DNA of 64,000 nt. It comes from Escherichia phage EP02SG. How positions within the stretch are numbered: the stretch's first letter is position 1; the number at the start of each line of letters is the position of its first letter. A program made the position numbers and the translations under genes. The notes under the pieces are model-generated. The model was given only the letters and a program-made list of their open reading frames with translations, searched no databases and was not told the DNA's origin. This document shows, piece after piece, positions 968 through 9,592 of this stretch. The DNA lies in the sequence record PQ301181, one strand, 5' to 3'.

Positions 968-1147
968 TTATGCAACAACCTTTCCAAAACGAGAAGCATC
1001 ATCTCGAAGAACTGCACGTGCTCTGCGCATGATCTTCTCAACTGTTTGATTAATACGAGAGTTCGACCCACGCTTGTATCCAGCGCGTTTAGAGGTACCA
1101 TCAACTTTCTTTTCAACTGCTTTCTTTGCTTTAGCTTGTTTTGCCAT
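968..1147 (-). CDS. small basic protein (59 aa, MAKQAKAKKAVEKK...), hand-translated
   Basis: ATG at 1145-1147 (minus), stop at 968-970, strongly basic; followed immediately by hairpin 945-962; below ORF-track size cutoff; overlaps track ORF 931..1116 in another frame. Confidence 0.4.
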   Translation of the reverse strand: MAKQAKAKKAVEKKVDGTSKRAGYKRGSNSRINQTVEKIMRRARAVLRDDASRFGKVVA

Positions 1148-2178: not shown

Positions 2179-2487
2179 TTACATAAGAAGCAAACGTTCC
2201 ACCGGAGTACCATCAACCGAAATTACTTTATCAAGGCGGAAAGAACGCCACTGGCCTAACTTGGTATCGAATGCTCGAACTGATTCACGAGGTTCATAAC
2301 GAACTTCTGTTGCCGGATTGTTATTTTCATATTTGACTTCAAGTTCATCGCGCGAAGCAAACATAGTGCGTACCTCGCCGTTAGCCTTTTCAAATACAAC
2401 ACAATGAACGCCTACAGACAGAATAGTTTTAATACGTTCACGAAGAACCATAGTTTCTTGTTCAGTTAAAATCATATTATTCACCAC
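2179..2487 (-). CDS. hypothetical protein (31.1-like position)
   Basis: ORF track, 102 aa, compact spacing between gene 31 and cd. Confidence 0.55.
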   Translation of the reverse strand: MVNNMILTEQETMVLRERIKTILSVGVHCVVFEKANGEVRTMFASRDELEVKYENNNPATEVRYEPRESVRAFDTKLGQWRSFRLDKVISVDGTPVERLLLM

Positions 2488-3058
2488 AAAAGTTTCGGAT
2501 TTGTTCCCAATTCAGAGAACGAAGATTATTACGAGAGTACTGAATTACTTCAATACCGGCTTGTTTTAGAATGTCTGCCCAATTTTCAGGAGATCGATCG
2601 TATAATTCTGCGTATACAACCTTTTTAATACCTGACTGCGTAATAGCTTTAGTGCAATCAGGACATGGAGAAAGCGTAGTATATAACGTAGCACCTTCAA
2701 TAGAATTACCTTTACGAGCTGCAAACAAAATTGCATTCAATTCTGCATGGATTTCATTATTAGCAGACCATGCACTATGAGCGGCCCGATGTTCTTTAGC
2801 CAAAACAAAATTATCTGCCCGTCCAAATGCTGTAGTGCCTTCTTTATGTCCAGCAACGATGACCGGGCTTGGTTTATTCTTCAACCAACCATTTTCGGAT
2901 GCATGTTCACAGCAGTTAACGCCACCTGCGGGTGAGCCATTATATCCAGTAGAGATAATGCGTCCATCTTTTTCAATGACGGCACCAACTTTCCATGAAC
3001 AACATTTTGATTCTTGAGAAATCAAATAAGCAATTTGAAGATATGTGCTAGCTTTCAT
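2477..3058 (-). CDS. cd: dCMP deaminase
   Basis: 193 aa (same as T4 Cd); cytidine/dCMP deaminase zinc motifs HAELNAI and SPCPDC. Confidence 0.9.
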   Translation of the reverse strand: MKASTYLQIAYLISQESKCCSWKVGAVIEKDGRIISTGYNGSPAGGVNCCEHASENGWLKNKPSPVIVAGHKEGTTAFGRADNFVLAKEHRAAHSAWSANNEIHAELNAILFAARKGNSIEGATLYTTLSPCPDCTKAITQSGIKKVVYAELYDRSPENWADILKQAGIEVIQYSRNNLRSLNWEQIRNFCGE

Positions 3059-4050
3059 TATTGAACCTTATTAATATAAGTTAACAGCTCTTTAGTTTGT
3101 TCCCAACTGATGCACGCATCGGTAACGGAAACGCCATAGGACATATTATCAGAAATTTTTTGATTTCCTTCATGTAGGAATGATTCTATCATAATTCCTT
3201 TGACTAAATCATTAGCTGCTAAATTTTTACCAATACCAATTTGATTGCTATAATACCCATCAGCGTTTGCATGGCTACAGTCAACCATTACATAATGATT
3301 CAGACCTAATGCACTTGCTTTGTTAGAAGCTTCTTGAATATCAGAAGAATGATAGTTCGGGCCGTTAGTCCCGCCACGCAATACGATATGCGTATTCTGA
3401 TTACCTTCAGCTTCAACAATGCCTACAGTACCATCGACGTCCATACCCATATACCGATGAGGCCAGGCGGCACTATACATCGCGTCTGTAGCTACTTTAA
3501 TAGAACCATTGGTTGCGTTCTTGAAGCCTACGCACATCGGTAGACCTGAAGCAATTTCACGATGTGTCTGACTTTCAGTCGTACGGGCGCCAATAGCAAC
3601 CCATGAGAAAATACCAGAAAGATACTTAATCGTGAATGGGTCTAATACTTCAGTTGCTAATGGAAGTCCCATACGTAGAAGTTTACGACACAATGTTCGT
3701 GCAACTATAAGACCGTGGTTCATATCAAAACTTCCGTCAAGATATGGATCATTTACAAGACCTTTCCAACCTACGGTAGTTCGAGGCTTTTCAAAATAAA
3801 CGCGCATCACTAACAGAACATTAGGAAGACGAGTTTGAAGTTCAGCCAGACGTTTGCCGTATTCAACAGCAGCAATAGGGTCATGAATTGAACAAGGACC
3901 TACAACAATAAGTTTGCGTGGGTCTTCACCGTTCATAATCGAATTAACTTGTTCGCGATGAGAAGCCACTTGTGATGCGTAAGCTTCCGACAAAGGAATA
4001 ATCTCAGCCAGTTCTTTTGGAGAAATAAGTTTTCTGATGACAGGTAACAT
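3058..4050 (-). CDS. 3-deoxy-D-arabino-heptulosonate-7-phosphate (DAHP) synthase, class I (AroG/AroF/AroH-like)
   Basis: 330 aa; long colinear matches to recalled E. coli AroG: GPCSIHDP, MRVYFEKPRTTVGWKGLVNDP, GARTTESQ, HIVLRGG, DCSHANA, ESFLHEGNQ; stop overlaps cd start. Confidence 0.85.
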   Translation of the reverse strand: MLPVIRKLISPKELAEIIPLSEAYASQVASHREQVNSIMNGEDPRKLIVVGPCSIHDPIAAVEYGKRLAELQTRLPNVLLVMRVYFEKPRTTVGWKGLVNDPYLDGSFDMNHGLIVARTLCRKLLRMGLPLATEVLDPFTIKYLSGIFSWVAIGARTTESQTHREIASGLPMCVGFKNATNGSIKVATDAMYSAAWPHRYMGMDVDGTVGIVEAEGNQNTHIVLRGGTNGPNYHSSDIQEASNKASALGLNHYVMVDCSHANADGYYSNQIGIGKNLAANDLVKGIMIESFLHEGNQKISDNMSYGVSVTDACISWEQTKELLTYINKVQ

Positions 4051-4170
4051 AACAATCCTTAGGAGATATAAACAGATTCTGATTCAACAATACCTTTAAC
4101 CGGATTAGACAGGCTAAGTTGGTAGTGCTCAGATTTATGACCATTCACGATAGTAATGAGATAGCTCTCA

Positions 4171-4407
4171 TTATAGTGTTCCATATACTCGAGTTGCTTC
4201 AACAAGACCATCACTGCCTAATTTAAGATTAGTAATTTGGTCACCATCTTTAGGATTAACGATTATGAGAAAAGAACGTGGAGATTCTTGAATAACTCGT
4301 AATGTTGCATCTTGGAAACGTTCAGACACTTTATTGATGAGTGCTTGAGCAAATTCTTTTACTTTAATCTGAAATTCGTGTACTGTAATTGGGTTTTCAC
4401 TTAGCAT
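4171..4407 (-). CDS. hypothetical protein (78 aa)
   Basis: ORF track; promoter-like element 4431-4462 upstream. Confidence 0.5.
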   Translation of the reverse strand: MLSENPITVHEFQIKVKEFAQALINKVSERFQDATLRVIQESPRSFLIIVNPKDGDQITNLKLGSDGLVEATRVYGTL

Positions 4408-4430
4408 TTCTATTTCCTCATTTGTTGGTA

Positions 4431-4462
4431 GAGTTATAGTATCACAACTCCACCATGTTGTA
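4431..4462 (-). promoter_or_regulatory. T4-type early promoter
   Basis: ttatagta ... tgtaaac upstream of ORF 4171..4407. Confidence 0.5.
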
Positions 4463-4467
4463 AACCA

Positions 4468-4743
4468 TTAAATTGCTTTGCATTCAATTTTTTGTGTACC
4501 GAAATTGATATCACATTGGATAACTAAATCGCCGTCAAGATCAAATACCACTATGACGTGTGCAGACCCAGGGAGAAGAGTAATAGCAATAGAATCTACT
4601 TGGTCTGGGAGCAAAGCATTGAGTACATGAGTTAGTTGAGCATGAACTCTGAGTTCGGCTGCATTATCAAGCACTTCAAACATATTATTAGCAATAATCT
4701 GACTGAAGACTACCTTTACAATTTCAGAATAAGTTGGGAACAT
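4468..4743 (-). CDS. hypothetical protein (91 aa)
   Basis: ORF track, compact minus-strand array. Confidence 0.5.
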   Translation of the reverse strand: MFPTYSEIVKVVFSQIIANNMFEVLDNAAELRVHAQLTHVLNALLPDQVDSIAITLLPGSAHVIVVFDLDGDLVIQCDINFGTQKIECKAI

Positions 4744-4750
4744 AATTACC

Positions 4751-4975
4751 TCAGTGTACAGTATTTACTTTAACTCGAACAACAAATCGCTCGGTTGGTT
4801 CACCTACAGGAACAAACTCTACATGATATTCACCTTTGTAACGAGTATTCAGGTCGTTACGAATTTCGGTAAGCTTGTTGATTAATGTAGAACTCATATT
4901 AAGTCCCACTAGTTTACGAAGCATTTTGTATGCTTCATCTTCGATTTCATGATGTTTATCGTACATAGTTTTCAT
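4751..4975 (-). CDS. hypothetical protein (74 aa)
   Basis: ORF track. Confidence 0.5.
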   Translation of the reverse strand: MKTMYDKHHEIEDEAYKMLRKLVGLNMSSTLINKLTEIRNDLNTRYKGEYHVEFVPVGEPTERFVVRVKVNTVH

Positions 4976-5146
4976 TTAACCATTCAATTGCCTGGTCGAC
5001 GTTATCAAATATACCGCCGTCCAACCATTCTTCATGTTCATAGTCCAGCACATCAATACCGAACCGTCCATTTACTAAAGGCCATACTACAAACAAATAT
5101 TCTTTATGCTGTTCGATGGCCTCAATCACTTCATATAATCGTTTCA

Positions 5147-7999: not shown

Positions 8000-9133
<1,134 letters not shown>

Positions 9134-9150
9134 TCAGTTAGTTTTTTTTT

Positions 9151-9182
9151 AAATTATACCACAATCCTTGTGGCATGTAAAC
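9151..9182 (-). promoter_or_regulatory. T4-type early promoter upstream of rnlA
   Basis: aattatacc ... tgtaaac. Confidence 0.45.
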
Positions 9183-9592
9183 TACTTTTTCTTATGTTGG
9201 ATATTCCAAGGCGGGTTGAACTTTTTGATAAAAAGCGGTTCTTCAAGGTCCATTGTTGCGATGGTCATTGAACCAAGTTCGTTGGTGACTGAAAGGTCAA
9301 AACATTGGCGGGCCCAGAATTCAACCTTTTTGCCTTGCATTAAGGCATCCAAAATCATAAGTGATTTTCTTGAATCTGAAGTCTGGTCTTTTCGATTTAT
9401 GGCTGTTCGATAATAGTTAATGCGTTTCTTTAAATTCTTGGTTTTACCAATATACACAAGTTCGTCATCTATAGCAATAGCATATATGACATTTTTCTTA
9501 TTAGGGACATCAACTGTTTTAATTGTTGCATCTTCTAATAGCTCCAATTCTGTATATTTAATAAAGGAATATTCGGCGGCAATATCTTTCAT
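9182..9592 (-). CDS. denA: endonuclease II (GIY-YIG family)
   Basis: 136 aa as in T4 DenA; GIY-YIG-like YIGKTKNLKKRINYY. Confidence 0.8.
   Translation of the reverse strand: MKDIAAEYSFIKYTELELLEDATIKTVDVPNKKNVIYAIAIDDELVYIGKTKNLKKRINYYRTAINRKDQTSDSRKSLMILDALMQGKKVEFWARQCFDLSVTNELGSMTIATMDLEEPLFIKKFNPPWNIQHKKK

Follow-up and report, generated by a model that had tools for sequence, protein, structure and literature searches.

Escherichia phage EP02SG encodes, on the minus strand at 3058..4050 of the 64,000-nucleotide stretch of record PQ301181 analyzed here (the window), a 330-residue type I-alpha DAHP synthase (3-deoxy-7-phosphoheptulonate synthase) of a T4-like phage clade (PHROG 5045). We predict, with a probability of roughly 0.6, that it is an early-expressed, catalytically competent and feedback-insensitive gatekeeper of the shikimate pathway. 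The family assignment combines the reading frame, Pfam, NCBIfam, PDB and PHROG matches, and an AlphaFold2 model compared using Foldseek. In the mechanism we propose, the enzyme would convert erythrose-4-phosphate (E4P) and PEP to DAHP and would be transcribed with the prereplicative cd.2-cd block. In this clade the catalytic machinery is frozen, with the single allosteric pocket used for shut-off of cellular enzymes by Tyr, Phe or Trp rebuilt and the N-terminal segment that would close this pocket missing. Its encoding by the phage may allow escape both from TyrR/TrpR repression and from host transcription shut-off. In infected cells the shikimate pathway would stay open at its main flux-controlling step, whatever the host amino-acid levels, and the chorismate-derived supply would provide the Phe, Tyr and Trp that go into virion protein, possibly also pABA/folate or quinones. 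A feedback-insensitive DAHP synthase alone is known to raise pathway flux in engineered bacteria and plants (PMC5879953, PMC8136874). The analysis itself establishes the family, the intact active-site residues, the pocket changes particular to the clade, its age, the synteny and the purifying selection; it is the enzyme activity, the feedback insensitivity, the early timing and the downstream product of importance that we infer.

The family match is far beyond chance. The protein matches PF00793 (DAHP_synth_1) with E=2e-74 (250 bits vs a cut-off of 25.5), and the NCBIfam models TIGR00034 and NF009395 with 426 bits (cut-off 173) and 454 bits (cut-off 343) respectively. The profile of PHROG 5045, a phage DAHP synthase family in the category 'moron, AMG and host takeover', is matched over its full length (E=1.5e-181, residues 1-330 on positions 8-337 of 341), and the best match in a PDB sequence search is the E. 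coli AroF structure 6agm (E=1e-104). The AlphaFold2 model (pLDDT 92, pTM 0.92) adopts a (β/α)8 barrel with an N-terminal extension and a β6a/β6b insertion (strands 198-203 and 209-214), and aligns in Foldseek with E. coli AroG (8e0u; TM 0.96, rmsd 1.5 Å). The sequence-only reading of this DNA had described the ORF as an AroG-like DAHP synthase adjoining cd: its extent, the overlap of its stop with the cd start and its family (here refined to type I-alpha) all hold. So do the six motifs that were quoted: GPCSIHDP (51-58), MRVYFEKPRTTVGWKGLVNDP (82-102), GARTTESQ (154-161), HIVLRGG (221-227), SHAN (259-262) and EGNQ (294-297). The particular likeness to AroG does not: identity to E. coli AroF, AroG and AroH is 51, 48 and 44%, AroF thus being the closest paralog, and the protein misses the cut-offs of both the Phe-sensitive AroG equivalog NF006723 (362.5 vs 568 bits) and the AroH-specific NCBIfam model (384 vs 463 bits). 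The near-identical blocks, which had been taken as a sign of recent capture, are invariant in AroF, AroG and AroH alike; hence, they are family motifs and silent on any specific or recent donor.

The catalytic residues, mapped onto those of AroG, lie within 3118..3894 of the minus strand. They include the metal ligands C53 (3894-3892), H260 (3273-3271), E289 (3186-3184) and D311 (3120-3118), equivalent to AroG C61, H268, E302 and D326; the E4P-type KPRT motif K88-T91 (3789-3778), equivalent to AroG K97 and P98-T100; and the PEP ligands R83, G154-R156, K177 and R225, equivalent to AroG R92, G163-R165, K186 and R234, with K97 (K88 here) also counted among the PEP-binding residues. All 14 metal/PEP/E4P positions examined are invariant in 24 phage-clade sequences, and 13 are also invariant in the 99 other sequences counted; the position of AroG T100 is T in 24/24 phage-clade sequences and S in 3/99 others. 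These positions have remained unchanged in a clade that has diverged to 57% identity. Accordingly, the degenerate pseudo-enzyme that the sequence-only reading had allowed for finds no sign in the alignment. Between genera the dN/dS is 0.14-0.27, and the gene is under purifying selection; within Mosigvirus the ratio is not clearly below 1, the pairs having just 2-5 synonymous and 1-8 nonsynonymous differences, too few to be informative, and the between-genus pairs were therefore used. With its active-site residues intact, the phage protein is predicted to catalyze the formation of DAHP from E4P and PEP.

The feedback pocket presents a different picture. In an unbiased column scan of the phage clade against 98 cellular homologs only seven columns separate the two, and these correspond to AroG 150, 151, 155, 156, 180, 209 and 223, all in or adjoining the inhibitor pocket. 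The signature they spell, IKGIPYA, is found in 23/25 phage-clade sequences; E. coli AroF and AroG both have PQDLSFT. In the window these clade-discriminating columns define a remodelled pocket at 3409..3630 on the minus strand, with I141-K142 (3630-3625) and G146-I147 (3615-3610) in place of the cellular P-Q and D-L, and P171 (3540-3538), Y200 (3453-3451) and A214 (3411-3409) in place of S, F and T. Five of the seven columns are documented feedback-site positions (hypergeometric P=2e-7): in AroG, P150L, S180F and F209A/S confer resistance, Q151 and S180 bind the main chain of the inhibitor, and D155 forms a pocket-stabilizing salt bridge (PMC9529685). The equivalents of AroG P150, Q151, S180, F209 and D155 are I, K, P, Y and G in the phage enzyme, and escape from host feedback, one of the roles earlier floated for it, is the candidate that the sequence supports. 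K142 further aligns with Q166 of yeast Aro4, and the phage Q to K change reproduces, in both position and residue, ARO4 Q166K, listed as a feedback-resistant yeast allele (PMC5879953). The equivalent of yeast Aro4 K229 (resistant allele K229L) is variable in phage and cellular sequences and permits no inference. Counterparts of D146, L179 and V221 are kept in the phage pocket, along with a Tyr-type Gly at AroG 211 (S211 in AroG itself). Since the substitutions are conserved rather than decayed and these residues are retained, the pocket could still bind some ligand. A homolog acquired independently by Aeromonas phage HJ05 also displays S180P and does not have P150/Q151.

The N-terminus of the phage enzyme (4021..4050, minus strand) starts 8-11 residues later than that of cellular type I-alpha enzymes. 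The start at 4050 is the first possible in-frame start codon, with none earlier, and a Shine-Dalgarno-like AAGGA (4056..4060) stands 5 nt upstream of this ATG. The shortening by 8-11 residues is seen in 24/24 phage-clade sequences counted, with 48-52 residues ahead of the metal-binding Cys vs mostly 58-63 in cellular homologs, and leaves the phage protein without equivalents of AroG D6/D7 (AroF N7/N8). From the AroG-Phe structure and the literature on AroF N-terminal mutants, we take the missing segment to be the part that closes the inhibitor pocket. It is the combination of the rebuilt pocket with this missing segment that leads us to predict insensitivity to feedback by aromatic amino acids.

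In a neighbour-joining tree the phage DAHP synthases form one monophyletic T4-like clade (199/200 bootstraps). The gene occupies the same slot between pseT and cd in at least 5 genera, and its divergence between them tracks that of cd, pseT and gp31. No cellular homolog above ~55% identity was recovered in word-indexed or exhaustive HMMER searches spanning 5.8 billion sequences and 1.84 billion cluster representatives. On these grounds, and on the 44-51% identity to the E. coli paralogs, we rejected the proposal of the sequence-only reading that the gene was taken fairly recently from an enterobacterial host; the lineage is instead an old one, specific to T4-like phages. The gene is annotated, with an intact reading frame, in 212 phage records, and the protein from the window is 100% identical to those of ST0, pEK20, AV112/113 and vB_VIPECOMC06, which are encoded in the same pseT-cd slot; the proteins of HY126 and Bas47 (bas47_0048) are near-identical to it. 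It is absent from RB69, mar005P1, JK36, JK42, moha and the Dhakavirus phages, and is hence dispensable. The refuting condition set in the sequence-only reading, conservation throughout the close relatives together with an established role of another kind, does not apply: the gene is conserved in most relatives, and no such role is known for it.

Downstream of the gene lies cd, coding for dCMP deaminase (2477..3058, minus strand; Pfam dCMP_cyt_deam_1, E=1.5e-26; same annotation in relatives). The two are joined by a TAATG at 3056..3060 on the minus strand, in which the stop TAA (3060-3058) and the start ATG (3058-3056) have base 3058 in common; this one-base overlap suggests translational coupling, and an equally tight junction is present in PEi26, Marfa and the P0020 contig. 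The upstream neighbour is a cd.2 homolog (DUF7320; 4171..4407, minus strand). In RB69 the stop codon of cd.2 directly abuts the cd start. In the window, by comparison, a decayed copy of the cd start, ATAATGAGAGCTATCTCAT (4156..4174, minus strand), forms a direct repeat with ATAATGAAAGCTAGCACAT at 3043-3061 (16/19 identical), the two flanking the 1.1-kb DAHP synthase cassette; RB69-type phages have a single copy of this repeat and no cassette. A TG-extended sigma-70-like consensus match (TTTACA-17-TACTAT) upstream of cd.2, at 4436..4464 on the minus strand, is a candidate early promoter for cd.2-DAHPS-cd. A promoter and terminator scan of the region gave no more sites than shuffled sequence, and no TGCTT motif of a MotA box was seen in the 120-bp spacer, so that the timing of DAHP synthase expression is read from gene order only. 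The surroundings (gp31, 31.1, cd, cd.2-cd.4, pseT, alc, rnlA, denA, nrdAB, td and frd) are those of a typical T4-type early region. The earlier description of a block of T4 early nucleotide-metabolism genes is thus right as to the early region; nucleotide-metabolism genes make up only some of it.

The conservation of the rebuilt pocket admits another interpretation, namely that it was re-tuned and not switched off, now accommodating some other effector, for instance a metabolite relevant to the phage, and with it a new regulatory signal. We regard this as unlikely, though it accounts well for the near-invariance of seven pocket positions in a clade with only 57% identity, which implies purifying selection where loss of function predicts drift, and for the retention of the β6a/β6b regulatory hairpin along with the D146, L179, V221 and G211 equivalents. 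However, single changes in the phage pocket match known loss-of-inhibition alleles, the conservation could equally reflect a dimer interface and pocket kept packed in the active conformation, and the gene context points to no candidate ligand. Somewhat less likely still is that substrate consumption is itself the benefit: as an unregulated, irreversible sink for E4P (and PEP), the enzyme might draw transketolase flux from fructose-6-phosphate and glyceraldehyde-3-phosphate toward pentose phosphates, boosting ribose-5-phosphate/PRPP for nucleotides or the ribulose-5-phosphate of the arabinose pathway. This would suit a gene whose early-region neighbours include cd, nrdAB, td and frd, and the fact that many carriers also encode an isomerase converting ribulose-5-phosphate to arabinose-5-phosphate. 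It would also suit the carriage of the first shikimate enzyme only, no downstream enzymes of the pathway being seen in the window; yet this last feature is predicted equally by a role in shikimate supply. Such a sink is conjectural and costly, each pentose gained consuming one PEP and four carbons, and the genes for DAHP synthase and the isomerase dissociate in both directions. Overall, it seems improbable that the rebuilt pocket is a new switch answering to an effector other than an aromatic amino acid, or that the enzyme serves chiefly as an E4P sink into pentose phosphates; if either were true, the evolution of T4-like phages would have gone past the mere removal of feedback and given an enzyme of host central metabolism a regulatory logic of the phages' own.

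The remaining alternatives fare worse against the same evidence. DAHP synthase and KDO8P synthase have a common fold, and an altered sugar-phosphate specificity (e.g. for arabinose-5-phosphate), feeding a sugar modification of DNA, had accordingly been suggested; we consider this highly improbable. The PDB sequence search gave 21 matches, every one a DAHP synthase and none a KDO8P synthase; the 50 best fold matches are likewise DAHP synthases, and KPRT and all other DAHP synthase ligands are invariant, which argues against membership of the KdsA family. RB69, in which arabinosyl modification of DNA was demonstrated, lacks the gene, and the published route from ribulose-5-phosphate via arabinose-5-phosphate and arabinose-1-phosphate to UDP-arabinose is complete without a DAHP synthase (PMC13326640). 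The distributions of the gene and the isomerase also come apart both ways: at least 22 Klebsiella-phage records have the DAHP synthase without the RB69-type isomerase, and the isomerase occurs in 57 Acinetobacter-phage records as well as in RB69, with the DAHP synthase in just 4 Acinetobacter-phage records. The gene itself lies ~100 kb from the isomerase module. A link to DNA arabinosylation was therefore rejected. That the gene is a recent copy of host aroF or aroG, ordinarily Tyr-regulated and merely adding dosage, is very unlikely: AroF as the best PDB match and a Tyr-type Gly where AroG has S211 speak for it, but they must be set against the 51% identity to AroF, the ~55% ceiling for cellular homologs, the monophyletic, syntenic and co-diverging clade, and the replacement of Tyr/Phe-binding pocket residues. 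A non-functional passenger or pseudo-enzyme might be expected to be missing from several close relatives, as is observed, and to give a dN/dS not clearly below 1, as within the genus; it is hardly credible given catalytic residues invariant over deep divergence, the low between-genus ratio, frames intact throughout the 212 records and a confidently modelled structure.

The 212 records and PHROG 5045 mean that the existence of a phage DAHP synthase is not new. In the searchable literature we found no functional study of it, only passing mentions, as an AMG with no function assigned (bioRxiv 10.1101/2020.01.19.911818) and as a domain match (PMC8022965). If the prediction of a feedback-insensitive gatekeeper is true, enterobacterial T4-like phages possess an entry enzyme to the shikimate pathway whose feedback resistance evolved in nature, changed at the same positions, and once by the same substitution, as in the laboratory selections of metabolic engineers. 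It would be a coliphage AMG that acts on amino-acid biosynthesis by removal of allosteric control and not merely by addition of an enzyme, and it could serve as a ready-made deregulated enzyme for strain engineering. The question is tractable: near-isogenic natural variants exist without the gene (RB69, moha, JK36/JK42, mar005P1) and with it (HX01, JS09, Bas47, HY126), and their hosts are culturable.

The closest known systems are E. coli AroF (PDB 6agm/6agl), AroG and AroH, with which the phage enzyme has in common the family and fold, identical metal, PEP and E4P ligands, and the N-terminal extension and β6a/β6b hairpin. Like AroF, it has Gly at the Tyr/Phe specificity position; unlike AroF, its inhibitor contacts are changed (P151I, Q152K, D156G, S181P and F210Y in AroF numbering). 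It differs from all three paralogs by two short deletions close to its C-terminal third, and in being a lytic-phage gene outside TyrR/TrpR control. The feedback-resistant laboratory alleles aroG P150L, S180F and F209S/A, aroF P148L and yeast ARO4 Q166K affect positions that are also changed in the phage enzyme (AroG 150, 151, 180 and 209). However, these are single changes selected for analogue resistance, whereas in the phage clade natural selection has kept seven fixed changes together with an N-terminal truncation in several genera, and its resistance is predicted. Phage AMGs that encode a rate-controlling enzyme of a host pathway are a familiar class, which the phage DAHP synthase resembles as one flux-controlling, host-type enzyme carried with early genes; unlike the others, its target is the entry step of the shikimate pathway.

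The gene for the putative DAHP synthase (window 3058..4050, minus strand) encodes 330 aa from the first in-frame start codon possible, an ATG at 4050 with a Shine-Dalgarno-like AAGGA 5 nt to its 5' side on the same strand. Its TAA stop (3060-3058) overlaps the ATG of cd (3058-3056) by base 3058: this confirms the tight packing against cd noticed in the sequence-only reading, and the ORF itself and all six motifs quoted for it were likewise recovered. Judged by its matches, the protein is, as had been proposed there, unambiguously a member of the DAHP synthase family: Pfam DAHP_synth_1 (E=2e-74), NCBIfam TIGR00034 for aroFGH (426 bits vs a cut-off of 173) and, as the top solved structure, E. 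coli AroF (6agm; E=1e-104). Its AlphaFold2 model is confident (pLDDT 92, pTM 0.92) and superposes on E. coli AroG with a TM of 0.96 and an rmsd of 1.5 Å. By gene content (gp31, 31.1, cd, cd.2-cd.4, pseT, alc, rnlA, denA, nrdAB, td and frd) the surroundings are those of an ordinary T4-type early region, and over its first 9 kb the window shares 97-98.5% identity with Mosigvirus phages, PNJ-6, HX01, JS09 and HY126 among them. A 59-aa lysine-rich ORF in this stretch (968-1147, minus strand; 969-1148 in HY126), by position a homolog of RB69 30.9, is called '1,4-alpha-glucan branching enzyme' in HY126 and 'glycogen enzyme' in JQD51: the 'branching enzyme' label is almost certainly an annotation error propagated among Mosigvirus records.

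By alignment, the catalytic residues of the window protein are shown to be intact: all four AroG metal ligands (C61, H268, E302, D326), the seven PEP ligands (R92, K97, G163, A164, R165, K186, R234) and the E4P-type KPRT motif (P98, R99, T100) are kept, with no variation at these positions among the 24 phage-clade sequences counted. We scanned the whole protein without bias for columns in which one residue occupies ≥90% of the phage clade, the T4-like phage DAHP synthases, and another ≥85% of the 98 cellular homologs. Only seven columns discriminate the two, in AroG numbering P150→I, Q151→K, D155→G, L156→I, S180→P, F209→Y and T223→A. The signature IKGIPYA is present in 23 of 25 phage sequences and reads IRNIPYA and PKGLPYA in the remaining two, the most divergent members; the E. 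coli counterparts are PQDLSFT in both AroF and AroG, and GQDLSFT in AroH.

Five of the seven columns are documented feedback sites, given the residue roles in the literature (PMC9529685): AroG P150L gives complete Phe resistance; Q151 (AroF Q152) and S180 (AroF S181) bind the inhibitor main chain; the D155 salt bridge stabilises the pocket; and S180F, F209A and F209S are resistant. The hypergeometric probability of this is P=2e-7 (11 documented positions in 350), and the other two columns are adjacent in sequence. The clade-specific changes are in this comparison shown to be concentrated in the feedback pocket. Since K142 of the window protein aligns with AroG 151 and yeast Aro4 166 in ungapped local alignments, the Q→K change of the phage clade matches, in site and in residue, ARO4 Q166K, a listed feedback-inhibition-resistant allele (PMC5879953). 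In the phage proteins the metal-binding Cys is preceded by 48-52 residues, vs mostly 58-63 in cellular enzymes, and equivalents of AroG D6/D7 (AroF N7/N8) are absent. Going by the AroG-Phe complex and AroF N-terminal mutants, these residues, contributed by the partner subunit, presumably help to close the inhibitor site. The clade-wide remodelling of the feedback pocket appears to be undescribed in the searchable literature.

The gene had been read as a fairly recent capture from an enterobacterial host, a view that the following data contradict. The window protein shares 51% identity with AroF, 48% with AroG and 44% with AroH; its scores reach neither the AroG- nor the AroH-specific NCBIfam cut-off, and a candidate assignment as AroG equivalog was rejected on the former. 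The 'near-identical blocks' are all invariant across AroF, AroG and AroH, and hence, being by alignment catalytic motifs of the family, are uninformative on a recent donor. A search of 5.8 billion proteins returned about 24 phage-type sequences (57-98% identical, 319-343 aa), followed by a sharp step to cellular enzymes, none of them above 55%, which come alike from Kiritimatiellota, Planctomycetota, Pseudomonadales and Enterobacterales; exhaustive HMMER of 1.84 billion cluster representatives found none closer than about 51-57%. Neighbour-joining of 123 sequences groups the phage proteins in a single clade (199/200 bootstraps). The closest cellular sequence in the tree, P0113 (6001-7083 of its locus, 360 aa), comes from a normal bacterial chromosomal setting and has A/G/P/H at AroG 150/151/180/209; as this pocket departs from the canonical one, some bacteria, too, have naturally altered feedback sites. 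The exhaustive search also gave several representatives of 600-800 aa, of which P0121 (799 aa) and P0123 (730 aa) each have two query-matching stretches, suggesting a fusion, or DAHP synthase domains in tandem.

The existence of the phage gene is already known: 212 phage records carry it, almost all labelled DAHP synthase, 'aldolase' or aroF, with 139 at 95% identity or more (Mosigvirus), 47 at 60-80% and 26 below 60%. PHROGs places it in phrog_5045, 'moron, auxiliary metabolic gene and host takeover' (E=1.5e-181). The literature we found on the family comprises a single-sentence listing of the Mosigvirus gene as an AMG of unknown function (bioRxiv 10.1101/2020.01.19.911818) and a domain note for phiC120 (PMC8022965), and nothing beyond these. 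The order pseT - cd.x - DAHPS - (0-2 small ORFs) - cd - 31.1 - 31 - rIII recurs, with the pseT-cd slot common to Winklervirus CHI14, Marfavirus Marfa, Bragavirus PM2 and Kanagawavirus PEi26, and occupied also in the metagenomic contig of the most divergent member, P0020. Identities to the window for DAHPS/cd/pseT/gp31 are 77/83/58/77% in PEi26, 67/70/57/65% in CHI14, 66/79/66/64% in Marfa and 58/65/45/43% in PM2: DAHPS divergence and the flanking core genes rank the genera alike, and therefore the gene is, by this comparison, old and co-diverged with the phage backbone. Between-genus dN/dS of 0.14-0.27 (0.16 for the least saturated pair, PEi26 and Entb_45, dS 0.62) shows purifying selection on the aligned genes; within Mosigvirus, the ratio is uninformative, there being too few differences. 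The gene is accessory, by its distribution: in RB69 cd.2 abuts cd without it, as in ECO111 5-P, mar005P1, JK36, JK42 and moha (11 records in all), and Dhakavirus-type phages lack it. A 19-nt direct repeat (16/19 identical; 4156-4174 and 3043-3061, minus strand) brackets the 1.1-kb cassette, its upstream copy ATAATGAGAGCTATCTCAT, directly after the cd.2 stop, being a decayed duplicate of the cd start; in RB69-type phages, which lack the cassette, a single copy is present. Cassette loss by recombination between the repeats would fit this, as would an insertion that duplicated the cd start. RB69 cd (8743-9252) is annotated as 169 aa, with a 76-nt gap to 31.1, vs 193 aa overlapping 31.1 in the window (2477-3058); compared with its relatives, the RB69 gene may be frameshifted or truncated at the C-terminus.

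The most economical reading, to which as a whole we give a probability of roughly 0.6, is that of an active DAHP synthase, unresponsive to Tyr, Phe and Trp and produced early. Catalytic activity is very likely on the residues kept, and insensitivity to aromatic amino acids is probable; the enzyme would then condense its substrates without shut-off by Tyr, Phe or Trp, and of the roles earlier suggested for it, escape from feedback holds up in the replaced pocket residues. Early timing is suggested by the order of the genes, by the overlap of the stop with the cd start and by a sigma-70-like consensus match at 4464-4436 that is not significant; being made early from the phage genome, the enzyme would escape both host shut-off and repression by TyrR/TrpR. 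Flux through the shikimate pathway is controlled at its entry, the DAHP synthase step. A feedback-insensitive allele alone raises the output of the pathway in engineered bacteria (PMC5879953) and plants (PMC8136874). For both reasons carriage of this one enzyme makes sense as a way for the phage to guarantee chorismate-derived products, which of them matters being itself a matter of inference. With the remodelled pocket, what was an 'AMG of unknown function' now offers a sharp and cheap experimental prediction.

That the new pocket binds a different effector instead of none is rather unlikely, though its residues are strongly conserved and several old ones retained. A benefit from the consumption of E4P and PEP, drawing transketolase flux to pentose phosphates, is speculative and improbable; carriage of the first enzyme only suits the feedback-insensitive enzyme equally. 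Phylogeny and conservation contradict both the recent capture of an ordinary regulated aroF, which is very improbable, and a dead passenger gene, which is scarcely credible. The earlier idea that the enzyme feeds a DNA modification is hardly plausible either and is contradicted on four counts: RB69 arabinosylates its DNA yet lacks the gene; the route Ru5P → Ara5P → Ara1P → UDP-arabinose, described for RB69, DLP3 and HY126, is complete without DAHP synthase (PMC13326640); the KPRT motif is invariant; and the distributions dissociate, the RB69-type arabinose-5-phosphate isomerase being found in 261 records (among them 57 from Acinetobacter phages, but at most 3 from Klebsiella phages) and DAHP synthase in 25 from Klebsiella phages but no more than 4 from Acinetobacter phages. 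The RB69 base, reported in 2018 as arabinosyl-5-hydroxymethylcytosine (PMC6024577), is according to a differing 2026 account arabinosylated 5-hydroxycytosine, made via the thymidylate-synthase homolog gp48 (PMC13326640); the RB69 arabinosylation module adjoins the DNA polymerase gene.

An unrelated 79-kb Aeromonas phage, HJ05, encodes a 387-aa homolog (3899-5062, 38% identity) with intact catalytic motifs, annotated only as hypothetical and adjoining terminase-like and tRNA-methyltransferase-like ORFs. It has A/H at AroG 150/151 in place of P150/Q151 and shares S180P: from its sequence this looks like an independent viral acquisition, likewise without canonical feedback residues.

Set against known systems, the window protein has every catalytic and structural feature tested of the type I-alpha DAHP synthases and lacks their regulatory one, the pocket for aromatic amino acids; it is no KDO8P synthase, and it belongs to the catalogued phage family PHROG 5045. 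Its closest functional likeness is to the laboratory resistant alleles (aroG P150L, S180F and F209S; ARO4 Q166K), from which it differs in that natural selection has fixed seven changes jointly with an N-terminal truncation.
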